64,000 nucleotides of DNA from an uncultured bacterium (lineage in GTDB: Bacteria > Patescibacteriota > Minisyncoccia > Phycocordibacterales > GWA1-40-21): assembly GCA_963804975.1 (NCBI GenBank), contig CAWDSG010000002.1:277015-341014 (forward strand), read 5' to 3'. The first letter of the stretch is position 1; each line of letters starts with the position of its first letter. A program made the position numbers and the translations under genes. Under the pieces are notes generated by a model that made no database searches, was not told the DNA's origin, and saw only the letters and a list, made by a program, of their open reading frames with translations. Of the stretch, positions 1,611 to 62,090 are shown in pieces.

Positions 1611-1670
1611 ATAAAGGACATTGGCTAAATTATAAAGGACATTAGCATAATAAGATAAAATGTCCTTTAG
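1611..1670. promoter_or_regulatory. candidate operator: two direct copies and one inverted copy of TATAAAGGACATT upstream of the giant surface-protein gene
   Basis: ataaaggacatt at 1611-1622 and 1631-1642; reverse complement aaatgtccttta at 1659-1670; then TTGACA at 1679-1684. Confidence 0.3.
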
Positions 1671-1930
1671 AATAAGAACTTGACATTTTTTGAGATAAAT
1701 TTTTCCAATTTGAAAGAAAATTGAATTTTCACTTGACAATAAAATTGTTTATGATACGATGTTGTCATATTAAGCTCTTTCAAAGATTTTTTACAGGAAT
1801 TATGTAAAAAAGTTCTTTATTTTCTACATGTTTTAAGGTTTTTGTTTGAAACTCACGTATTAGTTTTTTTGATATTTTTCAGTATAAGCAACTCATTTAA
1901 AATTAAATTTAGCAAATTAAAAGCACTTTA

Positions 1931-4900
1931 ATGTGCATTCGTTTTTTAGCCAGTAAAATTATTATGTTTAGCCATTATCAAAAAATAAGCAGATTCTTAG
2001 GCAATATCACAACTATTGTCCTTTTGACCATTGTTGTGTCATTTGGCTTTGTTTCTTTTGCGCATGCTGCTACCACAACACTTTCATATACAGGAGATCC
2101 TATAGATTCTTGGACAGTACCTCAGGGTGTTACTAGTTTGACAGTTAGTTTAACAGCTGGCGGAGGGGGTGGCGCTGGCGGTGCATTCACATTTGGCGGT
2201 GGTGGCGGTGGTGGTGCAGGAGCATCATTTTCTCAAACTATTTCAGTATATCCAGGACAAATAATTGCTTATGTCGTTGGTGCCGGAGGCGTTGGCGGAA
2301 CAAGCGGTTTTATAAATTTTGCTGGCGGCAGCGGTAATGACGGAGGATATACTACATTTGGTACCACAACAGCTTTTGGTGGCAAAGGTGGACAAGGAGC
2401 TACATACGGTCATCCAAATGGAGGACAGGGCGGACTTGCTGGTGGAATTGGAGGAAATGCTGGTACAAAAGGTGATGATTACATTGGACAAAGAAGTTGT
2501 GGCGGAAACGGCGGATCATCTCTTATTGGAAATGCTGGACTTGGCGGTTGTGGTGCTAGCGGTTGGTCTACTCTTCCTACAGCTGGAACAAATGGTGCTG
2601 GTGGTGGAGCAGGAAGTGGATGGGCATATTATGAACATCCTGATATTAAAGATGCAGGAGCAAATGGCGGAAATGGCCTTATTGTTCTTTCATATACTCA
2701 AGATCTTGTAGCTCCAATTATTACAATTCTCGGCTCAAATCCTCTTACTTTGGAAGCAAGCTCAACTGAAATATATATTGATGCCGGTGCAACTGCATTT
2801 GATGATGTAGATGGAACAACCACAGCTACCACAACTTTTAATAACGTAAATCTTGCCGCAACAGGAACATATTCTGTTGTTTATTCCGCTACAGATAAAG
2901 CGGGAAATACAGCGACATCCACAAGGATTGTGAATGTTGTAGATGATATTGCGCCGGTTATTACAGCTCCAGATACTCAAGTGTTTGAAGCTACCGGTGC
3001 AACAACAACTCCAATATTAATACAAGCCGTAGCTACTGACGGTTTCGATCCAAACCCAGTTATTACTTATAATCCTCACGATTTTACCTTGGGAACAACC
3101 ACGGTTGTTTGGACTGCCACCGATTCTTCGGGGAATTCAGCCACAACCTCATCTTTAGTGGTTATAAAGGACACAACTGCTCCTGCAATTGTCCTTAATG
3201 GTTCATCAACAATGTCCTTAATGATAGGCGACACCTATACAGAACTTGGAGCAACAGCTTATGATTTGGTAGACGGAACGACAATAGTAAATACTATAGG
3301 AACTGTTGATACAAATGCTACCGGAACATACCAAATTCTCTATACTTCTAGCGACAATTCTGGAAATACAGCTATAACTTCAAGAACAGTAATTGTAACT
3401 GCAACACCAGATACTACAGCTCCGGTTATAACAATTCTTGGAAATAATCCAGAAACTATAACTCTCGGTTCAATTTATACAGACGCCGGTGCAACTGCAC
3501 TTGATAATATTGACGGCGATATCACTTCAAGAATCGCAAGTTCAAGTGATGTAAATACTTCTGCAACAGGAACATATTCTGTGATTTACACAGTTTCTGA
3601 CAATGCAGGGAATGGTGCAACCTCTACAAGAATTGTAGATGTTGTTGCAACAGCACCAATACTTTCATCAATTAGTATTTCACCTTTGAACCCAACACTT
3701 GCGGTAAGCGCAACAACAACGTTTGTCGCAACAACTTTGGATCAGTATGGAAATCCTTTTGCAACGACAACTGCTTGGAATAGCTCAAATACTTCAGTTG
3801 GAACAATAGATGCAAGCGGAATCTTTACCGCGCTTTCAGAAGGAACAACAACAGTTACAGGAACAACCGGAACACTTTCAACATCAACAATGGTAACTGT
3901 AACCCCAGTTTCTGTCCTTGATACAACTGCGCCAACAACCCCTGTGATAACTGGAGTTAGCGCAACAAGCACGATTGTAAATCCAGCGATTATCTCATGG
4001 ACCGATTCAACAGATTCTCAATCAGGACTTGCGGGCTATTTATATGAAATAACTATTGTTCATCCAAGTATGATAGCAACAACAACAGGCGGCTTGACCT
4101 TCATTACTGCAACAACAACGAGTTTTGATCTTGCTTCCATAACTTCTGGAAAACCAAACCCATATTGGTTTAATGTTGCTGCTATTGATAATGCTGGAAA
4201 TATCTCAACAACGACAAGTTACGGTCCGCTTCTTGTGTCTGATTCTCAGGTATTGATTGAAAATTCAAATCTTGGAGGTACATTCTATACAATATATTCA
4301 CCAACACTTGTAAATTCTCTTCTTGCACCAGTTGCAACAACAACAGGTACAACAACAATAACAAATTCCACACTTTCAACATTCTGGGATGTAAATAATT
4401 CAAGCATTACAAACACAACGATCAACGATGTAAATTTGGATGCAGTTACAGTAACGAATTCAACATTAATAAATTCTGATATAGCGAGATGCATCGTCAT
4501 AAATTCTCTTGTAAAAAATTATTATGCTAGAGATTGTCATATTGCATACTCAGTACTTGACCCGTCAACTTTGTACGATTTCATAAATTCAACAAGTACA
4601 AATTCACAAATTTATGCTTCAGATATTTATGATTCTGTAATATCAAATCATTCTTATATTGCTACATCAACAATTACAGGTTCAACAATAGATTCTTCAA
4701 CAATAACTTTGAGTACTATCGCAACCTCAACAATTACAGGTTCGGTTATTGCAAATAGCGACATAACACTTTCAACAATTACTGATTCTACAGTTTCATC
4801 ATCAACACTCACAAACGTTGTTTCCGCAAGCTCAACCATTACAAATACTGTATTGTCAGATGCAACAACCACGAATGCAGTAATACATGATGGTATTATT

Positions 4901-7900
4901 GACAGTGGAACAATAATAATAGGTGGAAACACTTATGTTATTACAACACCAACACTGATAAGTTCACTTGTTCCAACAGTTGTGGTTACTCTTGCATCAA
5001 CCACACCTGTTTCAGGAAATATTACCGTAGGACAATCATCTGTTGATCTTGCAGAATTCACATTTACAAATAATTCTGCGACTTCCGGCGAGATAAACCA
5101 AATTACATTAACGAGAACGGGATCATCAACAGATACGACTTTATCGAATGTATATTTGTATCAAGGGTCAAATCAAATAGCGTCAGGAATATTATCATCG
5201 GGTCAAATTGTTTTCCTTAACAATTCAGGTTTATTTACGATTGCATCAAATACTTCGGTCACGGTGGCGATAAAAGCCGATGTTTCTCCATCTGCTAATG
5301 TTGGTAACACAATCGGATTTTCTCTCACTCAAATTACAGCGCATTCATTAGCGGTATCAGCAGTATTTCCATTAACAGGTTCTTTGATGACTGTTGTAGG
5401 AACAACTTCTGTTCCAGTAACATCTATCTTAGTTAATTGGACAAGTGAAGTAACAACAGTTGATGTTGGTTCAACTTTGCAAATGACCGCAACGGTAAAT
5501 CCATCAAACGCAACAAATAAAAATGTTATATGGTCTGTTGCAAACGGAACCGGATCAGCAACTATCGATTCGACAGGAGTTTTGACTGGCGTCGCAACCG
5601 GAACCGTTATGATTGCAGCTTCATCAACAGATGGCTCTGGTGTTTTTGGAACGACAACAATCACAGTTATCCCAAGCGGAAGTTTGGTACCTGTTATTAC
5701 AGTTATCGCGCCAAACCCATCACCAAACGATAATTCAGTATTATGGATTCACGGAGCTCATTTGGGATTTGCTACTTCTAGCTATACCGCTATCTTTTCT
5801 CAAAACAGCAGTGTTGTAGCAACGACATCTATATCATCTACAAATCCAAGCGGTTCAGATCTTGAAGCTAATTTTCCAATAGGTATTTCAGCCGGAGTTT
5901 ATCAGGTTTCTATTTCTGACCAATATGGTACAAGCAACTCTTTTGATCTTACTGTTACATCATCCGGAACAGTAATTCCAACATTATCAAGCATTACAAT
6001 CACCACTCCGGCAGACAAACTTATCTACACATTAGGCGATTCGCTTGATATCACAGGATTGGTAGTCACAGGAACATATTCGGACGGCTCCACTTCAACC
6101 GAGCCGCTCACTCTTGCCGACGTTTCCGGTTTCGATTCATCTGCCGCATCCTCAAGCGAAACATTAACGGTCACGTATCAAACACAGACAACTTCATACA
6201 ATGTTGCGATTAATCCAACTTTAATGCTCGATTCAATCGCCATCACGCATCCGGCAGACAAACTTATTTATACTGTCGGTGATTCACTTGATATCACAGG
6301 ACTAGTAGTTACAGGAACTTATTCAGACGGTTCAACATCGACTTTGCCGGTCTCAGTTTCAAATATTTTTGGATTTGATTCGTCAATACCAAATCCGAGT
6401 GAAACTTTGACAATTGCTTATGAAGGAAAATATGTAAGCTTGTTTGCTACAGCGACTTATACAATTACAATTAATGCCGGTCCAAGCGGTCCAATTGCGG
6501 TCACAGGAGTTACGGTTAGTCCGACGTCGCTTAATCTTACAGCAGGCGGAGCAACCGGAAATCTGACAGCAAGTGTTATTCCATCAAACGCAACCAATCA
6601 GAATATTTTCTGGAACACTGACAATGCGGAAGTTGCCACAGTTTCAAGCGGAGTAGTCACGCCGATTGCCGCGGGTATAGCAAATATTACAGTCACAACC
6701 GAAGACGGAAGTTTTGTTGCCACAAGCACAGTTACAGTTACAGCAACATCAACACCGCCTCCAACGTTACAAAGCATTGCTATCACTTCGCCTGCAACTA
6801 AACTTTCCTACAACATCGGAGACACTCTTGATATCACAGGACTTGCCGTCACCGGAACTTATTCCGACGGTTCAACTTCAATTGAACCGATCAGCGTTTC
6901 AAACATTTCGGGATTTGATTCTTCAGCTGCAAATCCAAATGAAGTTTTGACCGTTACAGTTAGTGGACTTACAACAAATTATACAGTCGTTATAAATGCA
7001 GGAAGTGTTTCAACTCCGGTCTTATCATCAATTTCCATTTCAGCTTCACCTCTCACTTTGGCAGTCGGTTCAACCACACAATTTACAGCAACAACACTGG
7101 ATCAGTTCGGTGATTCAATACAAGCGACGGTAAATTGGTCAAGCTCAGATACCTTAGTCGGTGATATAGATGCAAGCGGATTATTCACAGCTTCTGCAAC
7201 AGGAACAACTGTTGTTACAGGAACAGCTGGAACATATAGTGCAACTATTACAGTTACAGTATCTGATTTTTCAGACCAAACTCCGGTCCTTTCATCAATA
7301 AGTATTTCGGCTCCATCTTTAACATTAGCTGTCGGTTCAACCACACAATTTACAGCAACAACACTGGATCAGTTCGGTGATTCAATACAAGCGACGGTAA
7401 ATTGGTCAAGCTCAGATACCTTAGTCGGTGATATAGATGCAAGCGGATTATTCACAGCTTCTGCAACAGGAACAACTGTTGTCACAGGAACAGCTGGAGC
7501 AACAACAATATCAGCTACTGTAACAGTATCAGTAATTTCAACAGGAGGAGGTTCAACACCAGTTCCAACATTATCAAGTATTGCAATTACATCACCAGCA
7601 AACAAATTGTCATACAATATTAATGATAGTCTTGATATCACAGACCTTGTTGTCACCGGAACTTATTCCGACGGTTCAACTTCAATTGAACCGATCAGCG
7701 TTTCAAACATTTCGGGATTTGATTCTTCAACAACAACTCCAAGCGAAGTTTTGACAATTAATGTCAGCGGATTGACTACAACTTATACGATTACGGTAAA
7801 TGCCGGTCCAAGCGGTCCAATTGCGGTCACAGGAGTTACGGTTAGTCCGACGTCGCTTAATCTTACAGCAGGCGGAGCAACCGGAAATCTGACAGCAAGT

Positions 7901-21224: not shown

Positions 21225-22396
21225 AGATGTTCCTTATCGAAAATCTTAAAAAGCGGTATCCAAATAAAAATAAAAAAGTATTTGTTGGGCTTTCGGGCGG
21301 AGTGGATAGCTCTGTTTCTGCCGCATTGCTTAAAAAACAAGGATACAATATAACGGGAGTTTTTATAAAGGTTTGGCAACCGGAATTCCTGCCTACCGGC
21401 CAGGCAGGTTTTAATTGTACTTGGCGGCAAGACAGATTGGACGCAATGCGAGTTTGCGCAAAATTAAATATTCCATTCATCACTTTGAATCTTGAAAAAG
21501 AATATAAAAAAGAAGTGGTGGATTATATGATAAATGAATATAAAGCCGGCAGAACTCCGAATCCTGATGTTATGTGCAATAAATATATAAAATTTGGCCT
21601 GCCCGGCCAGGGCGGTTTTTTTGACTGGGCAATGAAACGCGGAGCGGATTATGTTGCTACCGGTCATTATGCGCGGGTGGAAAAAATTAGCAATAAATAT
21701 CAATTGCTAGCCGGAGAAGACAAAAATAAAGACCAGTCATACTTTCTCTGGACGCTTACACAAAAGCAATTGAGTAAAACTCTTTTTCCAGTGGGCGATT
21801 TGGATAAGCCGGAAGTGCGGAAGCTTGCAAAAAAATATGGCCTAAGCACTGCAGTTAAAAAAGACAGCCAAGGACTTTGTTTTATTGGAAAAGTGGATAT
21901 GAAAGATTTTCTAAAGAATTATATAAAAGAGAAAAAAGGGAAAGTACTTGACGAAAAAGGCAAAGTGATAGGTGGGCATAACGGCGCGTTTTATCTGACA
22001 ATCGGCCAGCGCCACGGCTTTAAAATCTTGGAAAAAAACCCGAATGATTCGCCGTATTACATAATTGATAAAGACATCAAAAACAATACTATTATCGTAT
22101 CGCATAATTCTTTTAAAAAGTTAGAAAACGAATCAAAAATAGTTAAATTAAAAGATTTGAATTGGATTTTGGGAGATGAGCCGGATTTGAAGAAAAAATA
22201 TTCCGCCAGAATACGATATAGAGCTCCGCTTGAAGAATGCGAAGTTCACCATGGCGAACTTGGGAAATACGAGCTTCATTTCACAAATCCGCAAAAAGCC
22301 ATAACAGAAGGCCAATCAGCGGTTATTTATGACGCCCGTCCGAACGGTTCATCCGGGCGGGGAGAAATATGTTTGGGAGGAGGAATAATTGTGTGA
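21221..22396 (+). CDS. mnmA: tRNA-specific 2-thiouridylase MnmA
   Basis: PP-loop VFVGLSGGVDSSVSAALL, then ...EYKAGRTPNPDVMCNKYIKF...DYVATGHYAR...NKDQSYFLW...GQSAVIYD...CLGGGII. The ORF-track start at 21182 overlaps the upstream gene; ATG 21221 gives a 4-nt ATGA overlap. Confidence 0.85.
   Translation: MKMFLIENLKKRYPNKNKKVFVGLSGGVDSSVSAALLKKQGYNITGVFIKVWQPEFLPTGQAGFNCTWRQDRLDAMRVCAKLNIPFITLNLEKEYKKEVVDYMINEYKAGRTPNPDVMCNKYIKFGLPGQGGFFDWAMKRGADYVATGHYARVEKISNKYQLLAGEDKNKDQSYFLWTLTQKQLSKTLFPVGDLDKPEVRKLAKKYGLSTAVKKDSQGLCFIGKVDMKDFLKNYIKEKKGKVLDEKGKVIGGHNGAFYLTIGQRHGFKILEKNPNDSPYYIIDKDIKNNTIIVSHNSFKKLENESKIVKLKDLNWILGDEPDLKKKYSARIRYRAPLEECEVHHGELGKYELHFTNPQKAITEGQSAVIYDARPNGSSGRGEICLGGGIIV
21388..21408 (+). 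repeat. 21-nt GC-rich hairpin element CCTGCCTACCGGCCAGGCAGG, in frame within mnmA (encodes LPTGQAG)
   Basis: Exact 21-mer shared with 50527..50547 and 59063..59083; 19/21 identity with 25892..25912. 7-bp stem CCTGCCT/AGGCAGG with loop ACCGGCC. Confidence 0.85.
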
Positions 22397-24365: not shown

Positions 24366-26279
24366 TTGGTTATGTTATCAAACGAAATTCGCCAAAGATA
24401 CCTGAAATTCTTCGAAAAAAGGGGACATAAAATAATCCCTTCGGCTTCGCTTGTGCCTGAAAATGATCCTTCTTCGCTTTTTATAAGCGCCGGAATGCAG
24501 CCGCTTGTACCTTACCTTTTAGGCGCAAAACATCCTGCCGGCAAAAGGATTGTGGATGTCCAGAAATGCGTCCGTACGATAGATATAGACGAAGTTGGAA
24601 ATAATCGCCATCTGACTTTTTTTGAAATGCTTGGAAACTGGTCTCTTGGAGATTATTTCAAAAAAGAAGCGATTGAATGGAGTATGGAATTTCTGACAAG
24701 CAAGAAAGAGGGGCTCGGCCTTGATCCAAAACGCCTTTATGTAAGTGTATTCAAGGGAGAGGGCGAAATTCCGCGCGATGAAGATTCTATAAAATATTGG
24801 AAGGAAAATTTTGAAAAACATAAGATTACTGCAGATGTTGCTGGAACGGACGAAACGATAAAAAATAATGTGAGAATTATTCCTCTCGGTAAAGATGATA
24901 ATTTTTGGATTGCTGGGAATACCGGTCCGTGCGGCGGAGATACCGAAATGTTTTATGATGTCGTCGGAAAGGGAAAAGTGGAAGGAAAATTCCAAAACCT
25001 GGTAAAATCCGGCCGGATTATTGAAATTTGGAATGATGTTTTTATGGAATTCAATAAAACAGCCAACGGAAAATATGAAAAACTTGCAAAACCGAATGTA
25101 GACACCGGAATGGGACTTGAAAGAACTTCTGTGGTGATGCAAGTAAAAAATAATGTTTATGAAACGGATATTTTTGCGCCGATAATCGCCGAGATAAAAA
25201 AACTTGCGAAAAATTACAACGAAAGATATGCGAGAATAATTGCAGACCATGTCCGCGCCGCGACTTTTATGATTGCCGATGGCGTTACTCCGTCAAATAT
25301 TGAGCAGGGATATGTTCTTCGGAGATTATTGAGAAGAGCAGTCAGATGCGCGGACCAGATAAGTTTAGTTCAAGAAAATAAAACCGAGCGCAGCAATCTT
25401 TCTTATATAGCCCAACTATTTGTAGAACAGAATATGTCTGCATATCCTAATCTTGCAACCGAATCGGAAAGGATTTTCAAGGAAATCGAGGTGGAAGAGC
25501 AAAAGTTCAGAAAAACATTAAAAGATGGATTAAATGCTCTTAAAAAAATATTTAATTTGGCTATAGGAGGAGTGGATCCTGAAAATCTTCCCGCTGGAAT
25601 GAAACTTGAGGGTAATACTATTAGAGTTGATGGTAAAATGATTTTTAATATTTATCAAACTTATGGATTTCCACCAGAACTTTCGCAAGAAATAATGACT
25701 AATTGGGGATTAAAATTTGATGATGAAACTATGAGAGAATGTCAAGAATCTTTTAAAAAACACCAAGAAATTTCAAAAGCTGGTTCGGAACAAAAATTCA
25801 AAGGCGGATTGGCAAGTACCGGTGAAATGGAGACGAAATATCACACAGCTACGCATTTATTGCTCGCATCATTACGAAAAGTTCTTGGTGGCCTGCCTGC
25901 CGGTCAGGCAGGGGAAATTGTGCAGAAGGGAAGCAATATCACGGCGGAAAGGATGCGTTTTGATTTCAATTGGCCGGAAAAATTGACCGCCGAACAACTA
26001 AAAGCTGTAGAAAAACTCGTGAACGAAAAAATTACCGAGAAAATTCCCGTTCAAATGCTTGAATTGCCGAAGGAAGAAGCGAAGAAAATCGTTTCAACCC
26101 TTTCTTTTGACTTGTCCAAATACGGCGATGTTGTGAAAGTTTACAAGATAGGGGATTTCAGCGCAGAATTCTGCGGCGGCCCTCACGTCAAAAATACCGG
26201 CGAATTGGGGCATTTCAAAATCATTAAAGAAGAAGCTTCAAGTGCGGGAGTGAGAAGAATCAAAGCGGTTTTGGAATAG
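24366..26279 (+). CDS. alaS: alanine--tRNA ligase, short form lacking the C-Ala domain
   Basis: N-terminus SNEIRQRYLKFFEKRGHKIIPSASLVPENDPSSLFISAGMQP, editing-domain HxxxH/...CGGPHV motifs, end ...GVRRIKAVLE. 637 aa against about 870 aa for canonical AlaS. Confidence 0.85.
   Translation: MVMLSNEIRQRYLKFFEKRGHKIIPSASLVPENDPSSLFISAGMQPLVPYLLGAKHPAGKRIVDVQKCVRTIDIDEVGNNRHLTFFEMLGNWSLGDYFKKEAIEWSMEFLTSKKEGLGLDPKRLYVSVFKGEGEIPRDEDSIKYWKENFEKHKITADVAGTDETIKNNVRIIPLGKDDNFWIAGNTGPCGGDTEMFYDVVGKGKVEGKFQNLVKSGRIIEIWNDVFMEFNKTANGKYEKLAKPNVDTGMGLERTSVVMQVKNNVYETDIFAPIIAEIKKLAKNYNERYARIIADHVRAATFMIADGVTPSNIEQGYVLRRLLRRAVRCADQISLVQENKTERSNLSYIAQLFVEQNMSAYPNLATESERIFKEIEVEEQKFRKTLKDGLNALKKIFNLAIGGVDPENLPAGMKLEGNTIRVDGKMIFNIYQTYGFPPELSQEIMTNWGLKFDDETMRECQESFKKHQEISKAGSEQKFKGGLASTGEMETKYHTATHLLLASLRKVLGGLPAGQAGEIVQKGSNITAERMRFDFNWPEKLTAEQLKAVEKLVNEKITEKIPVQMLELPKEEAKKIVSTLSFDLSKYGDVVKVYKIGDFSAEFCGGPHVKNTGELGHFKIIKEEASSAGVRRIKAVLE
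25892..25912 (+). repeat. variant copy of the 21-nt hairpin element (CCTGCCTGCCGGTCAGGCAGG), in frame in alaS (LPAGQAG)
   Basis: Two substitutions relative to the other copies; they extend the stem to 8 bp (CCTGCCTG/CAGGCAGG) with loop CCGGT. Confidence 0.8.
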
Positions 26280-50149: not shown

Positions 50150-51907
50150 ATGCCATCCTCATCCGTAGAACAAATAAAAGAAAGATTAAGCATTGAGGAA
50201 GTTGTCGGCTCATACATCAAGCTTGAACGGGCGGGCAACAGTCTCAAAGCAAAATGTCCTTTTCATAATGAAAAAACGCCGTCTTTTTTTGTATCGCCGG
50301 AGAGAGGAAGCTATTATTGTTTCGGCTGCGGAGCCAAAGGCGATATATTCACTTTCGTTGAAAATTTTGAAGGAATCGATTTTGTCGGCGCTCTCAAAAT
50401 GCTTGCGGAAAGAGCCGGCGTAAAGCTTGAGCGTTTCAGCGAAAAAAATACTGACAAAAAGCAAAGATTATACGCTCTGCTTGAAGCCGCAACATTTTTT
50501 TTGGAAAGGAATCTGACAGGCGAAGACCTGCCTACCGGCCAGGCAGGGATCCCGCTTCAATATCTGAAAAAAAGGGGGCTTTCCGATAAGATCATCAAAG
50601 AATGGAGGATAGGGTACGTTCGGGACGAATGGCGTTCAATTTCCGATTATTTGAGCAAGAAAGGATTTACCGAAAGTGAAATGGAGCGCGCCGGCATCAC
50701 CAAAACCGAAGGGAAAAATACCTATGACAGATTCCGCGGCAGGATTATGTTTCCGATTTTTGACGCCGCCGGAAGGGTTATCGCATTTTCGGGAAGAATT
50801 TTAAATGACGACGGAAAGTCCGCGAAATATTTAAACAGCCCGCAGACGGAAATCTTTGATAAATCAAAAGTTCTCTACGGCTATCATGCGGCAAAGCAGG
50901 CCATAAGAAAATTTGATTTTTCCATTCTTGTGGAGGGGCAGATGGATCTGCTCTTGGCCCATCAGGCGGGATTTGAAAATACCGTCGCTTGCTCAGGCAC
51001 TGCGCTTACGGCGGAACATCTGCATCTGCTCAAAAGGATATCAAATAAAATTATCATGACTTTTGACGGTGATGAAGCCGGGGCAAAAGCAGCCGAGCGG
51101 GGATGGGCCCTTGCGCTATCTCTCGGAATGGATGTAAAAATTGCCGAATTGGAGAAAGGAATCGATCCGGCAGACCTGATACTGAAAAACAAAGAGGAAT
51201 TCAAAAATGTCTTAAAAAATTCGGTGCATTTGGTGGATTTTCTGTTGAACAGAATTATGGCAAAGCATGCGGATCAAAGGAAACTTGGTTTGGAATTGAA
51301 AAACAAGGTTCTGCCGTATGTTAAATTGCTTGAAAGCAATATCGAAAGATCTTTTTACGTCTCAAAAATCAGCGAAAAAACGGGAATAAAAGAAGAGGCA
51401 ATATGGGAGGATTTAAAAAATATAAAACTGGACGAGGAATTCCAGCCGAAAGAAAGCGGGGAAAATAAAGCGATAGAAAGGCAGATCGATTCGGAAATTC
51501 TCAAAAAAGGTTCTGTTGAAAGGAGTTTGGCGTCGATCCTGTCAAAGGAAGAAGGGCGGAAAAATGCGAATGCGGATATTTTGAAAAAAGAAATAGAAAA
51601 TATAATCGGCGAGGAAAGATACGGAAAATTTGAAAAGGAAAGGAAGTCCATATCGGGCGAACTGGCGTTTGAAGCGGAAGGATATTACGGCAATTTCCCG
51701 GAATTAAAAATGGGGAAAGAAATTGATTATCTGATATTGAATCTGCGGGAGGAAAATTATAAGAGGGAACTGAATGGCTTGCTGACGGATTTGAAAAAAT
51801 CCGAAAAAAACAGGGAGATCGAAAAAATAAAGGCAATATCAGTGAGATTGAAGGAAATAATGGAAAAATTGAGCAAAATCAAACAGGATAAGAACAAAAT
51901 TTTATAA
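50150..51907 (+). CDS. dnaG: DNA primase
   Basis: Zinc ribbon CPFHNEKTPSFFVSPERGSYYCFGCGAKGDIFTF; Toprim region EGQMDLLLAHQAGFENTVACSGTALT...MTFDGDEAG. Confidence 0.85.
   Translation: MPSSSVEQIKERLSIEEVVGSYIKLERAGNSLKAKCPFHNEKTPSFFVSPERGSYYCFGCGAKGDIFTFVENFEGIDFVGALKMLAERAGVKLERFSEKNTDKKQRLYALLEAATFFLERNLTGEDLPTGQAGIPLQYLKKRGLSDKIIKEWRIGYVRDEWRSISDYLSKKGFTESEMERAGITKTEGKNTYDRFRGRIMFPIFDAAGRVIAFSGRILNDDGKSAKYLNSPQTEIFDKSKVLYGYHAAKQAIRKFDFSILVEGQMDLLLAHQAGFENTVACSGTALTAEHLHLLKRISNKIIMTFDGDEAGAKAAERGWALALSLGMDVKIAELEKGIDPADLILKNKEEFKNVLKNSVHLVDFLLNRIMAKHADQRKLGLELKNKVLPYVKLLESNIERSFYVSKISEKTGIKEEAIWEDLKNIKLDEEFQPKESGENKAIERQIDSEILKKGSVERSLASILSKEEGRKNANADILKKEIENIIGEERYGKFEKERKSISGELAFEAEGYYGNFPELKMGKEIDYLILNLREENYKRELNGLLTDLKKSEKNREIEKIKAISVRLKEIMEKLSKIKQDKNKIL
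50527..50547 (+). repeat. 21-nt hairpin element CCTGCCTACCGGCCAGGCAGG, in frame in dnaG (LPTGQAG)
   Basis: Exact match to the mnmA and pyrG copies; same codon phase (CTG CCT ACC GGC CAG GCA GG). Confidence 0.85.
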
Positions 51908-58201: not shown

Positions 58202-59849
58202 AACTCACAAATATATTTTCGTCGTTGGAGGCGTCATGTCGGGCGTAGGCAAAGGCATCGCTGTCTCATCTATCGGAACCCTTCTTCAAGCGAAGGGTTT
58301 TTCTGTAAACCTTCTGAAAGTTGATCCATATCTCAATGTTGACGCAGGAACGATGAATCCAGTGGAACACGGCGAAGTATTTGTTTTGAATTCAGGCCTT
58401 GAGACGGACCAGGATATGGGAAACTACGAAAGATTCCTGAACATAGATCTGACAAACGATGATTACATCACTTCCGGCATGGTTTACAAGCATGTCATTG
58501 AAGCGGAAAGGGCGCTTAAATACGGCGGAAAATGCGTGGAAGCCATTCCGCAAATCCGCGATGAAATAATCCACCGCTATGAAAAATCGGCGAGAGTGAG
58601 CAAATCGGATATCACTGTTGTGGAAATCGGCGGCACCATAGGCGACTATCAGAACATTATGTTCATAGAAGCGGCAAGGACGATAAAAGTAAGGCATCCG
58701 AATGACGTGGCTTTTATCATTGTCAGCTATATGCCGGTGCCAACAAAACTCGGCGAGATGAAATCCAAGCCGACTCAAAATGCTCTACGCCAACTCAATT
58801 CTTACGGAGTTAACGCAGATATAATCATTGCGCGCTCGGAGGTGAAAATGGACCAGAAAAGAAAAGAAAAAATAGCTATTTCCTGCAGTGTGCACACGGA
58901 CCATGTCATTTCCGCTCCGGATATAGAAAGTGTTTTTGATGTTCCGCTGAATTTTGAAAAAGATAACTTGAGCAAAATTTTAATAAAACTTTTATATTTG
59001 AAAAAAAAGAAAAATGGAACGGGAATGGGCAAGTGGAAGAGTTTTGCAAATAGCGTGAGAAACCTGCCTACCGGCCAGGCAGGTACCATAAATATCGCAA
59101 TTGTCGGCAAATACTTCAATACGGGCGATTTTGTGCTTACGGACGCTTATGTTTCGGTGCTTGAGGCCATCAAATACTCGGCATATAAGCTCAAGAAAAA
59201 AGCTGTGATCCACAGCGTAAATGCCCGTGATTACGAGAATAGAAAAGCCGATTTCAAAGCACTGGAAAAATTTGACGGGATAATCGTGCCCGGCGGATTC
59301 GGCGAATCAGGAATAGAAGGAAAGCTTGCCGTCATAAAATACGCTCGAGAAAAAAAGATTCCGTATTTCGGACTTTGCTACGGAATGCAGCTTATGGTCA
59401 TAGAATATGCCAGAAATGTTCTGAAGCTCAAAGACGCAAATACGGCTGAAATAAATCCTAAATCAAAAAATCTTGTCATAGATATAATGCCGGATCAGAA
59501 AAAGAAAATTGCGGAAGGTAATTATGGCGGGAGCATGCGGCTCGGCGCTTATCCTGCATTTTTGGAAAACGATACGATAGCCAGCGAGGCCTACGGAAAA
59601 AATAAAATTGAAGAAAGGCACAGGCATAGGTATGAAGTAAATCCTGAATATGCAAAAAAACTGACTAATGCCGGCCTGGTATTTTCCGGAAAATCACCGG
59701 ACGGAATCCTTATGGAAATCGCTGAGCTTCCGAAAAAAGTCCATCCGTTTTTCCTCGGTACCCAATTCCACCCGGAATTCTTAGCGCGACCTTTGAGCCC
59801 GCACCCTCTTTTTACGGAGTTCATAAAAGCAGCAATAAAGAAAAAATGA
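58185..59849 (+). CDS. pyrG: CTP synthase
   Basis: N-terminal KYIFVVGGVMSGVGKGI; GATase domain GLCYGMQLMVIEYARNV...GTQFHPEF. Overlaps the rplU 3' end. Confidence 0.9.
   Translation: MMRSNKTHKYIFVVGGVMSGVGKGIAVSSIGTLLQAKGFSVNLLKVDPYLNVDAGTMNPVEHGEVFVLNSGLETDQDMGNYERFLNIDLTNDDYITSGMVYKHVIEAERALKYGGKCVEAIPQIRDEIIHRYEKSARVSKSDITVVEIGGTIGDYQNIMFIEAARTIKVRHPNDVAFIIVSYMPVPTKLGEMKSKPTQNALRQLNSYGVNADIIIARSEVKMDQKRKEKIAISCSVHTDHVISAPDIESVFDVPLNFEKDNLSKILIKLLYLKKKKNGTGMGKWKSFANSVRNLPTGQAGTINIAIVGKYFNTGDFVLTDAYVSVLEAIKYSAYKLKKKAVIHSVNARDYENRKADFKALEKFDGIIVPGGFGESGIEGKLAVIKYAREKKIPYFGLCYGMQLMVIEYARNVLKLKDANTAEINPKSKNLVIDIMPDQKKKIAEGNYGGSMRLGAYPAFLENDTIASEAYGKNKIEERHRHRYEVNPEYAKKLTNAGLVFSGKSPDGILMEIAELPKKVHPFFLGTQFHPEFLARPLSPHPLFTEFIKAAIKKK
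59063..59083 (+). repeat. 21-nt hairpin element CCTGCCTACCGGCCAGGCAGG, in frame in pyrG (LPTGQAG)
   Basis: Exact match to the mnmA and dnaG copies. Confidence 0.85.
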
Positions 59850-60445
59850 TCAATTCAATAATTGAAGCTTTTTTGTTGGGTTTGGTTGGAGGAGCGACTC
59901 CCGGACCGATTTTAACTGGAACTTTCGCCGAAGTATTAAGATCAAATTTTGTTAGAAGTCTTAAAATAATATTTCAAGCTCTGGTAGCAGAAACTGTAGG
60001 AGCTTTATTGGTGTTATATGTTTTTTATACGGCTGGATTTTCACATACAGCTATACAGATAATATCAGTGTGCGGAGCCATAGTTTTATTTTGGATTGCT
60101 TCAAATATCTGGAAAATAAGAGAAATAAATGCAGAAACAAAGGAAATTTTATCTTTTTCAAAAATAATATTACTGACCGCTTTTAACAGCGGTTATTGGA
60201 TTTTTTGGGTAGCTGTTGGTATTCCTCAGGCATTGGCTTTTGACAAACAGATTGTCGGTGGAAAATTTTTATACTTAATTATTTTTGAAATCGGCTGGCT
60301 TATAGCAACAATGCTTTTGGCTTTTATTTTTTATAAATTCCGTCCGATTTTACAAAGAAAAAATCTTGTCGGTGCCACTTTCAAAATTCTTGCGATTGTT
60401 CTTGTATTTATTGGTATAAAAACATTACTGGGAGTGTTTTTTTAA
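59846..60445 (+). CDS. LysE/RhtB-family amino-acid exporter
   Basis: N-terminal AFLLGLVGGATPGPILTGTFAEVL is the LysE-type motif; about 6 TM. ATGA overlap with the pyrG stop. Confidence 0.6.
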   Translation: MINSIIEAFLLGLVGGATPGPILTGTFAEVLRSNFVRSLKIIFQALVAETVGALLVLYVFYTAGFSHTAIQIISVCGAIVLFWIASNIWKIREINAETKEILSFSKIILLTAFNSGYWIFWVAVGIPQALAFDKQIVGGKFLYLIIFEIGWLIATMLLAFIFYKFRPILQRKNLVGATFKILAIVLVFIGIKTLLGVFF

Positions 60446-60476
60446 ATCTATTTTGAGTAGTAATATTCAACGCCAC

Positions 60477-61430
60477 TTAATCAATAATATTAATTTTAAA
60501 TTTAATAGTTTTATTTTTTAAATTTTCACCTTTTACAAAAGTATCAACATCAAATATTCCTTTATTCAAAAATGTTATATTCATATTACCTTCCATCATT
60601 TTTGTATTTGATTGTATATATTCATGTTTAAATCTAATTATTTTTTCTTTTGTGGTTGTAGAAATTAAAAATTGTTCCTCTTTTTCAAGGATAAATTCTT
60701 TAGGAAATGTAAATCCAAGTTCTGCTGTTTTAAAAATATAAGAACTCAAATTTTCAAGTGAAATTTCTATTTTATGTGATCTATTTACCGAGTAAGAATA
60801 TACTTTGTTTTCTACAATTTTTTGTTCATCAAAAGTAATTTGTATTTGTTCTTGTTTGATAAACAATGATTCGCTGTCCTTTTTGCCATTATCAGCAATT
60901 GTATTTAAAAGTTGAAGTGTTTTTTCCTCAATTGAATTTCTCATATCATGAACGGCATATGAAGCATCTGTAATGGTTTTAATCGAGTTCGAAAAAATTA
61001 TTAGCGAAGAGATAAGAAATATGATACTCAATATCATAAATATATACGATACTATAAGTAAATTTGTATAAAAAAACAGGCTGCTCAAGAAAAATATTAA
61101 CGAAAAACCTAGGGCAAAAAGACTTCTAGACAAAATATTATTAGTGCTTAGATAAAATAACTTTCTTTCAACTCTTTTTTTTGTTAATTTAAGCAATTTG
61201 AGATTTTTATCTAAAAAAGCCACATCCATAGATTTATCGTTGCCTTGTTTCTTTTTTAACATCTCGTTTTCTATGTTTTCTTCTACTTGTTTTTGCTCAT
61301 TTTTATAATTTTGACTTAATATTTTTATTCCATCAGGAAATGAAGAAAGAGCTATTGTTAAAATAGGCAAAACAAAACTAATCAATGTTAAAATAAGTGT
61401 GCCGTAAATTTGAAAAATAATCTGTTCCAT
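60477..61430 (-). CDS. hypothetical membrane protein (several TM, C-terminal soluble domain)
   Basis: ORF with hydrophobic N-terminal half; no recognisable motif. Confidence 0.4.
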   Translation of the reverse strand: MEQIIFQIYGTLILTLISFVLPILTIALSSFPDGIKILSQNYKNEQKQVEENIENEMLKKKQGNDKSMDVAFLDKNLKLLKLTKKRVERKLFYLSTNNILSRSLFALGFSLIFFLSSLFFYTNLLIVSYIFMILSIIFLISSLIIFSNSIKTITDASYAVHDMRNSIEEKTLQLLNTIADNGKKDSESLFIKQEQIQITFDEQKIVENKVYSYSVNRSHKIEISLENLSSYIFKTAELGFTFPKEFILEKEEQFLISTTTKEKIIRFKHEYIQSNTKMMEGNMNITFLNKGIFDVDTFVKGENLKNKTIKFKINIID

Positions 61431-61472
61431 TGTTTAATTATATATTAAGCTTACTAAGTATATTTGTAAAGT

Positions 61473-62090
61473 TTACCTCCTATTTTTCAACGCATTCTTA
61501 ATTGTTTCTGGATCAGAATATTCCAATTCGGTGCCGGTGGAAAGTCCGCGGCCAAGCTCGCTTATTTTTATTCCATATTTTTTGACAAGAGGGGAAAGGG
61601 CTTTTTTGACCAAATCCGCCGTATATTCTCCCTCGGCATTTGCATCAAGCCCGAGGATTATTTCTTTAAGTCCCTTTTCAGCCATTTTGTTTACAAGAGC
61701 AAGCAATTCATTCAAACGGATTCTTTGCTCTGGATTTTTATCAAGCACAGGCACAAGCCCGCCAAGCACGAAATATTTTCCACCGAATAAATTGCTCTTT
61801 TCAATATTGTTCAAATCAACATCCAACCCGACAATCATAAGAGATTTATTATCGCGTGCATCGTCGGCGCAGATATCGCAGACTTTTTTATTGTCTTTAT
61901 TCTTCAAAAAATATCTCCTGCATTCGGCGCAAGATGCAATTTCCGATTTAAGCTCGGTTATTTCTTTTTTAAAATCTTCAATAAAATAGTCGTTTTTTGC
62001 CATCAAAAAGTAAACAAACCTTCTGGCTTGTTTCGGTCCGATTCCCGGAAACTCTGAAAATATTTTTATAAGTTTATCTATGCTGTTCAT
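61473..62090 (-). CDS. recR: recombination protein RecR
   Basis: HhH GIGPKQARRFVYFLM; C4 zinc finger CAECRRY...CDICADDARD; Toprim region LMIVGLDVD...EGEYTA. Confidence 0.85.
   Translation of the reverse strand: MNSIDKLIKIFSEFPGIGPKQARRFVYFLMAKNDYFIEDFKKEITELKSEIASCAECRRYFLKNKDNKKVCDICADDARDNKSLMIVGLDVDLNNIEKSNLFGGKYFVLGGLVPVLDKNPEQRIRLNELLALVNKMAEKGLKEIILGLDANAEGEYTADLVKKALSPLVKKYGIKISELGRGLSTGTELEYSDPETIKNALKNRR

Follow-up and report, generated by a model that had tools for sequence, protein, structure and literature searches.

Why should one copy of a short repeated hairpin have a longer stem than its neighbours? The question is raised by the alanyl-tRNA synthetase gene (alaS) of an uncultured Paceibacteria-like bacterium of the candidate phyla radiation (CPR), in which a 21-nt element, CCTGCCTGCCGGTCAGGCAGG, lies at positions 25892-25912 of the plus strand of a 64-kb stretch of genomic DNA, referred to here as the window. 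A first-pass annotation of the window held that this copy differs from the other copies of the element at two positions, that the two substitutions lengthen the stem, and that they point to selection on a DNA cruciform or RNA hairpin and not on the peptide alone. It proposed comparing folding energies and testing all copies for covariation, and took many disrupted stems without compensatory changes as the outcome that would speak against its reading. The analysis presented here favours a different answer. The alaS hairpin is probably one copy of a family of selfish palindromic micro-insertions, which arrived after the split from the nearest sequenced relatives. Its differences are likely to be those of another subtype of the family (G8/T13/C14), falling at positions that vary freely, with an eighth base pair that is incidental. 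The evidence comes from the insertion status of the copies, their shared strand and phase, their subtype structure, the lack of covariation between positions 8 and 14, and a distribution that crosses phyla.

Sequence and folding of the alaS hairpin

The window was searched, allowing up to three mismatches to the 21-mer. Five copies were found, all on the plus strand (Table 1), in genes whose products were identified with Pfam as MnmA, AlaRS, ribosomal protein S11, DnaG and CTP synthase, and dinucleotide-preserving shuffles (n=100) gave no match. GC content is 71-76% in the element, compared with about 38% in the surrounding region. The copies at 21388, 50527 and 59063 are identical (CCTGCCTACCGGCCAGGCAGG), and against these three the alaS copy does have the two differences claimed, G for A at position 8 and T for C at position 13. 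The other copies are not all of one type, however, as the S11-gene copy at 31679 (TCTGCCTGCCGGCAAGGCAGG) has T1, G8 and A14; carrying G8 opposite A14, it has no eighth pair.

The pairing described in the annotation is reproduced by folding. The local common type (A8/C13/C14) folds into a 7-bp stem with a 7-nt loop, and the alaS copy into an 8-bp stem with the 5-nt loop CCGGT, G8 pairing with C14. The predicted energies of the local common type and the alaS copy are -6.1 and -8.6 kcal/mol as DNA and -10.6 and -13.2 kcal/mol as RNA, a gain in stability of about 2.5 kcal/mol for the alaS hairpin. In single-change controls (DNA), G8/C13 gives -8.5 and A8/T13 gives -6.1 kcal/mol. Thus, only G8 lengthens the stem, T13 being a loop change without structural effect, and the claim that both changes do so holds for the first alone. 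The protein-level effect was correctly stated: in frame, position 8 changes ACC (Thr) to GCC (Ala), and position 13 changes GGC to GGT silently.

A scan for terminators and promoters gave neither at the alaS hairpin, which has no T-run tail and is followed by GGAAATTGTG, and a role of either kind was dropped. Rfam covariance models gave no match at gathering score in the whole window, and none at E<=1 around the alaS site.

The copies as lineage-specific insertions

Among the best 120 AlaRS homologues, the seven residues encoded by the element are present only in the window's own protein. A database entry on a 606,401-bp contig matches this protein at 100% identity; identity is 77% for the homologue ranked next, and no member of the AlaRS cluster exceeds that value. 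In the 39 homologues that were aligned, RKVLG-GEIVQKGS is uninterrupted, where the window has exactly 7 aa (21 nt) more. In two relatives whose gene order is conserved (75-77% AlaRS identity), MnmA, AlaRS and S11 are without the insert, and no copy of the 21-mer was found in their 21-kb syntenic regions. Deleting the 21 nt from the window restores the reading of the relatives in mnmA, alaS and the S11 gene. The mnmA copy is an exact gain of 21 nt, as the orthologues read QPEF/FECTW (slash, insertion point) with no insert, and the S11 orthologues are 144 aa long, compared with 151 aa in the window. In PyrG, the motif is present in 1 of 120 homologues and in none of the 119 others among the matches listed. 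LPTGQA stands there where homologues have TK in a variable linker, with a net gain of 4 aa; the change is therefore not by insertion alone, a small deletion having come before it or with it.

The elements sit in loops or between domains. In AlaRS, the insert falls in the loop that follows the HxxxH helix in the AlaX-like editing domain. When the protein is aligned to a solved AlaX chain, its seven extra residues stand opposite chain residues and not opposite a gap. The dnaG copy lies between the Pfam Zn-ribbon (residues 3-94) and DNAG_N (residues 135-249) domains. GC-rich palindromic inserts make up 5 of the 11 window-specific insertions of at least 3 residues in the syntenic comparison, most of the others being at ORF (open reading frame) ends or in poorly conserved proteins. 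Two such inserts in mnmA are additional to the 21-mer (Table 1). The 15-nt insert is missing from all three syntenic orthologues and may be a shortened relative of the 21-mer. The 27-nt insert, also missing from the syntenic orthologues, folds with -15 kcal/mol when 3-nt flanks are included.

Table 1. Coordinates of the elements, the alaS gene and related inserts. Positions are those of the window, except in the last three rows, which refer to the loci named.
Feature	Position	Strand	Description
mnmA copy	21388..21408	+	Local common type A8/C13/C14; encodes LPTGQAG
15-nt insert in mnmA	21596..21610	+	GGCCTGCCCGGCCAG; GLPGQ; in frame; GC 0.87; predicted hairpin
27-nt insert in mnmA	22334..22360	+	GCCCGTCCGAACGGTTCATCCGGGCGG; ARPNGSSGR; in frame; different hairpin; GC 0.74
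alaS (host gene)	24366..26279	+	Alanyl-tRNA synthetase, short CPR-type form; Pfam tRNA-synt_2c and tRNA_SAD
alaS copy	25892..25912	+	Subtype G8/T13/C14; 8-bp stem, 5-nt loop; encodes (G)LPAGQAG
rpsK (S11) copy	31679..31699	+	T1/G8/A14, no 8-14 pair; encodes LPAGKAG
dnaG copy	50527..50547	+	Local common type; encodes LPTGQAG
pyrG copy	59063..59083	+	Local common type; LPTGQAG in interdomain linker
17-residue insert	L117 ~5500-5560		
17-residue insert	L133 ~4545-4610		
17-residue insert	L157 ~1640-1700		

AlaRS has a second lineage-specific insertion, of 15 residues, at 25566-25610 (GGVDPENLPAGMKLE). Its LPAG core (CTTCCCGCTGGA) loosely resembles the element, and it may be an old, decayed copy. 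Elsewhere in the window, positions 60000-62000 form a low-GC stretch (0.295 vs about 0.40), in which a 317-codon ORF on the minus strand (60477-61430) has no Pfam match and adjoins recR and dnaB. Codon usage was considered as a sign of foreign origin and set aside, the contrast being too weak for use.

Distribution and forms of the family

The consensus of the element family is CCTGCCT-RCCGGNN-AGGCAGG. Sequence collections were scanned with the pattern CCTGCCTNCCGGNNAGGCAGG, in which the stem is held fixed. It was found in 56 IMG/VR stretches and in at least 119 stretches of a collection of species-representative genomes. The carriers include Saccharibacteria, Paceibacterota and other CPR, many Bacteroidota, and Omnitrophota, Planctomycetota, Nitrospirota, Chloroflexi, Elusimicrobia and Gammaproteobacteria. 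Among them are cultured Bacteroidota with records not labelled as metagenome-assembled genomes (MAGs), namely Arenibacter sp. P308M17 and Aquiflexum lacus (CUG 91378), and one chromosome-level MAG record. Most carrier genomes have 30-50% GC, where chance occurrence of the motif is very unlikely; some matches in phage contigs of 65-70% GC may be due to chance or to one homologous gene. Collections of cultured phages and plasmids gave only chance-level partial matches, in GC-rich replicons. After flank-based removal of duplicates, a set of 193 unique copies was left.

The suspicion that the 21-mers are a sequencing or assembly artefact, either an adaptor-like palindrome or a k=21 artefact, has some grounds in that 21 is the smallest k-mer commonly used by metagenome assemblers, the carriers are mostly MAGs or IMG/VR contigs, and the motif is missing from the cultured phage and plasmid collections. 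It is nevertheless extremely unlikely to be correct. No artefact could keep to reading frame and gene orientation, avoid a stop-creating allele or place exactly 7 codons in surface loops; moreover, the copies come from many projects, including the records not labelled as MAGs and the chromosome-level record, and they have subtype structure and decayed members.

Related forms with the same arms were also seen: a perfect palindrome of 20 nt (CCTGCCTGCCGGCAGGCAGG), runs of (CCTG)n, nested centres of larger size, 21-mers in tandem and nested partial copies. In locus L053 (~1-230), ten 21-mers run head-to-tail (CCTGCCTGCCGGTAGGCATGG, LPAGRHG repeats), and in L172 (1245-1307) three tandem copies lie within a 620-codon ORF. 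In phage contigs, 42-nt perfect palindromes made of inverted back-to-back pairs (L017, 632-673 and 2655-2696) bracket the large terminase gene. A further relative, CCCGCCTGCCGGACGGGCAGG, recurs in four genomes (L065 at 235, 1597 and 514(-); L119 at 6644; L129 at 4486). Its best pairing is reached with a four-base shift of register (CCTGCC/GGCAGG), suggesting that the CCTG/CAGG periodicity permits alternative hairpins. The strings searched in the literature (the 21-mer, its variants and the peptides) gave no relevant paper, only unrelated primer and peptide coincidences, and a keyword search gave analogues only. The element seems to be a variant of palindromic selfish DNA that is widespread and as yet undescribed.

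Variation among copies and selection on the stem

If the hairpin were a functional DNA cruciform or RNA structure, with the alaS mutations retained because they lengthen the stem, positions 8 and 14 should vary together. Across the 193 unique copies, the counts are G 119 and A 73 at position 8; A 87, C 82 and T 23 at position 13; and C 121, A 47, G 20 and T 5 at position 14. These are the three hypervariable sites of the element, all in the loop of the 7-bp form. Speaking of substitutions in alaS presumes an ancestral A8/C13 at this locus, whereas G8 is the majority allele of the family and no close relative carries the alaS insert. The exact alaS 21-mer is the joint fifth commonest type, with 14 other unrelated loci (15 in all), five of the 14 being in low-GC bacterial genomes; as it recurs in this way, it may have arrived in alaS as such. 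C14 accompanies G8 in 66/119 copies and A8 in 55/73 (Fisher p=0.006), an association in the direction opposite to pairing. G8 stands with a base other than C14 in 53 copies and A8 in 18, and the alternative pair A8:T14 occurs in 2 of the 73 A8 copies. Watson-Crick 8-14 pairs number 69, where 76.7 are expected under independence. An eighth pair, present in 69/193 copies, is thus not unusual.

A less biased set, the bystander sample, consists of further copies in loci that had been fetched for another copy, together with the five of the window (25 perfect, 34 variant and 5 window copies; 58 sequences aligned). For these 58, scoring covariation on the 8-pair structure gives 0.115, with shuffles giving 0.119; in 30 of them positions 8 and 14 do not pair. 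The seven core pairs include 28 wobble (G.U-type) and 22 unpaired cases, with none changed on both sides. In IMG/VR, the 2x2 counts are CG 61, TG 10, CA 2 and TA 1 for pair 5-17, and TA 61, TG 2, CA 2 and CG 2 for pair 3-19; compensated variants number 1 and 2 for these two pairs, against 12 and 4 single-sided changes. The covariation test proposed in the annotation is thus negative, and disrupted stems without compensation are essentially what was found, with the reservation that the power of the test is low because the copies are nearly identical.

The stem itself is conserved. In the bystander sample, the major allele accounts for 86-100% at stem positions, compared with 41-64% at positions 8, 13 and 14. 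This extends to silent third-codon positions of the stem (4, 7, 16 and 19, 86-100%), whereas the major allele at the silent loop position 13 reaches only 41%. The CCGG centre is conserved about as well as the stem, which suggests sequence recognition or common descent and not structure alone. One-sided stem changes lean towards top-strand G.T/G.U wobble. In IMG/VR, C5>T (the CCTGTCTG subtype, top-strand T.G) outnumbers its mirror change G17>A fivefold (10 vs 2); the subtype was seen at loci L008, L010, L181, L183-L186, L188 and L192. The C5>T excess reflects either strand asymmetry or a propagated subfamily, and it may be a single propagated subfamily because all ten C5>T copies share G8.

A functional hairpin whose longer stem in alaS was selected has in its favour the predicted extra stability of the alaS copy, arms far less variable than the loop positions even at silent codon positions, and the lean of stem changes towards wobble over broken pairs (28 vs 22), including C5>T. 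It is nonetheless unlikely. The alaS copy carries the majority allele in a recurrent subtype, G8 is not tied to C14 and is partnerless in the S11 copy, T13 is structurally neutral, covariation does not exceed that of shuffles, compensated doubles are rare, no Rfam family or terminator-like tail was found, and the wobble excess has the alternative explanation given above. The view that pairing-extending changes were retained in alaS for that effect is not supported, both differences lying at hypervariable loop sites. As for the wider claim of selection on nucleic acid and not the peptide alone, the data do fit the idea that what defines the element is its nucleic acid and not the peptide alone, given the conserved silent stem sites, the use of other frames and the shared arms. 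The silent-site conservation may, however, reflect needs of propagation or the youth of the copies, and is no proof of selection at alaS.

Reading frame and encoded peptide

All five window copies begin at the third codon position and are read as LP[T/A]G[Q/K]AG. The probability of finding 5/5 in one of the six combinations of orientation and phase is about 8e-4 if all are equally likely. Outside the window, 65 of the 193 copies could be assigned to one clearly dominant long ORF; the other 128 were left unassigned, having no single dominant long ORF or a locus GC of at least 0.55. Among the 65, the frame encoding LP[TA]G[QKE]AG is used by 39 and the other five frames by 8, 7, 6, 4 and 1, so that all six are represented. 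Copies are also found in stretches without a long ORF. Read in another frame, the element gives a peptide rich in Cys and Arg or, in A8 subtypes read from the reverse strand, meets a stop codon.

This one-frame bias could mean that the heptapeptide LPxGxAG is the selected unit, a peptide module recruited repeatedly, with the palindrome as a by-product. T14, which gives a TAG stop in that frame, is indeed rare (5/193), and tandem heptad arrays occur in some ORFs (L172 and L053). A by-product would not be expected to conserve silent stem positions so much better than silent loop position 13, however, nor to occur in five other frames and outside long ORFs. The hosts are unrelated housekeeping enzymes that carry the insert in loops or linkers, the nearest orthologues function without it, and orthologous sites at which the peptide is kept while its codons vary synonymously have not been seen so far. 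The frame bias is more simply explained by purifying selection against Cys/Arg-rich or stop-containing frames, and recruitment as a peptide module is quite unlikely.

Insertion sites, flanks and the search for machinery

No target-site duplication is seen at the mnmA, alaS and S11 copies, the three window sites checked against orthologues. The insertion points fall within short runs: TTT/TTT in mnmA, GG/GG in alaS, AGA/AGA in the S11 gene and GA/GA in dnaG. Such runs, together with the position of some copies elsewhere between tandem heptamers, are compatible with a separate origin of each copy by local slippage or snap-back synthesis at short repeats. This is very unlikely as a general explanation, as local processes cannot make the same 21-mer in unrelated genes and phyla, and the flanks in the orthologues hold no visible template for the insert.

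Exact direct repeats of 7, 8 or 14 nt flank 11 of 191 unique copies on both sides, where about 0.3 would be expected by chance (loci L117, L133, L136, L137, L145, L157, L173, L073, L096, L122 and L056). They often consist of two heptamers per side, the heptamers differing between loci, and the copies concerned are nearly all of the G8/C13/[A,G]14 subtype. At three of these loci, a near-identical 17-residue insert, I-S-N-[FI]-P-A-[LS]-P-A-G-R-Q-[FY]-P-I-S-N, is found in different CPR proteins (Table 1). Going by conserved motifs beside the insert, one resembles a glycosyltransferase and another a YebC-like protein, the third being an unassigned ORF. As the insert is encoded by heptamer-hairpin-heptamer in a reverse frame, a longer composite version of the element also circulates.

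In a flank profile of 121 unique copies from loci below 50% GC, the only preferences are for G at -1, which reaches 63% in G8 subtypes, and for C at +1, which reaches 70% in A8 subtypes. The two co-occur no more than by chance, and the unit may measure 22 nt, its additional base varying with the subtype. A conserved target motif was rejected, the profile giving nothing beyond these two preferences. A half-site search found other short palindromes only and no longer element bounded by the arms; an origin of the 21-mer as a collapsed pair of insertion sequence (IS) termini was accordingly discarded. No gene for a RAYT transposase was found among the ORFs scanned in the window, itself 64 kb of a genome of about 606 kb, and where copies bracket ORFs in phage contigs, these encode TerL/TerS and no transposase.

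Proposed origin and its strength

The preferred explanation, a family of selfish palindromic micro-insertions, would work as follows. The insertions into loops and linkers of housekeeping genes, in a Paceibacteria-like genome of about 0.6 Mb, are recent and specific to this lineage. As each adds exactly 21 nt, the reading frame is kept. Copies surviving within genes would be mainly those in the orientation and phase that give a small flexible peptide without Cys and Arg, purifying selection presumably removing the other frames and leaving mostly the benign one. The element would be selfish, non-autonomous mobile DNA whose palindromic arms and CCGG core are probably needed for copying. The best guess at a mechanism is hairpin-dependent single-strand insertion of the HUH/Y1 type, as in IS200/IS605 or in repetitive extragenic palindromic (REP) sequences with RAYT, or else templated insertion during replication or repair. 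The lack of target duplication at the three window sites, together with insertion points inside short runs, fits single-strand or templated insertion better than a DDE transposase.

Several points weigh against this explanation. Identical copies and the comparison with orthologues are the sole indications of activity. Near-identity of the 21-mer across phyla is hard to explain without shared machinery, and no mobilising enzyme was found in 10 further window ORFs (housekeeping or unknown proteins), nor any transposase in 10 ORFs beside multi-copy loci (TerL/TerS, Bro-N, SWIM, D5 primase and others). The direct repeats hint at a staggered cut in the G8/C13/[A,G]14 lineage, which does not agree with the absence of duplications in the window. 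A further limit is that passage of the insert through translation, most likely as a 7-residue loop LP[T/A]G[Q/K/E]AG, is a prediction.

A bolder version can be offered tentatively, as a possibility that falls short of being the expected one. The 21-nt palindrome would be an active, horizontally spreading micro-element, the smallest mobile DNA unit noted in bacteria, shared by CPR, Bacteroidota, other phyla and phages. Its hairpin would be the substrate of a trans-acting enzyme or a repair pathway, positions 8, 13 and 14 would mark propagating lineages, and the alaS copy would be an invasion separate from that of the three identical copies. Essential genes would be colonised because the element supplies exactly seven codons and has one benign frame.

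Comparison with known palindromic elements

The GC clusters of mitochondria are similar in several respects. In the GC42 clusters of yeast (Saccharomyces) mitochondria, changes concentrate in the loops and abundant subtypes differ only there, and merging and shuffling of units have been described in yeast GC clusters (PMC4478555). Both they and the present family are short GC-rich palindromes scattered through an AT-rich genome (here 71-76% vs about 38% GC), with conserved stems, loop variation and loop-defined subtypes. Both include merged, nested or tandem units and can sit within coding sequence. However, the element described here is bacterial or phage-borne, occurs across phyla and has 21 nt, not about 30-50, and the AG target duplication of GC clusters has no counterpart at the three window sites. 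Unlike GC clusters and the byp insertions of Magnusiomyces that are related to them, it seems to be translated in frame rather than bypassed.

Rickettsia palindromic elements (RPEs; PMC10969869) are likewise in-frame palindromic repeats in unrelated housekeeping genes, adding a peptide at tolerated sites, and both are read as selfish DNA inside genes. RPEs are, however, about 100-150 bp long, confined to Rickettsia and encode a 30-50-residue segment (PMC10969869), compared with 21 nt in many phyla here; the sequences are not similar, and here a Paceibacteria-like CPR bacterium is the host.

REPs and REPINs, with their RAYT (TnpA-REP) transposases (PMC3733652), share with the element a length of 20-40 nt, a GC-rich imperfect palindrome and a high copy number. 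Neither shows target-site duplication, and the REP hairpin in single-stranded DNA is thought to be the substrate (PMC3733652). REPs differ in being extragenic, often in inverted pairs and in co-occurrence with a RAYT gene, whereas all five window copies are in ORFs. A REP also has a GTAG or CGTC head; the ends here are CCTG...CAGG, with GTAG only internal, on the reverse strand of A8 subtypes.

[quoted passage not shown] However, they are typically about 50-500 bp long, with target-site duplications and a recognisable parent IS, whereas the element consists of two 7-bp arms and a 7-nt centre, has no duplication in the window, and yielded no parent element in the half-site search. The element behaves like GC clusters and RPEs and partly like REPs, and is a member of none of these groups.

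Implications

The alaS variant is itself of little weight, and it warns against calling a single stem-extending difference compensatory when it falls at free sites. The wider finding is that reduced CPR genomes can accumulate selfish palindromic inserts in essential genes, here alaS, mnmA, rpsK, dnaG and pyrG, and that such inserts account for some lineage-specific loop insertions in conserved proteins. They can mislead alignment, orthology assignment and the annotation of repeats or CRISPR-like arrays in MAGs. Distant phyla and viral contigs share one circulating 21-mer; should it be mobile, it would set a lower size limit for mobile DNA and raise the question of the machinery that moves it.

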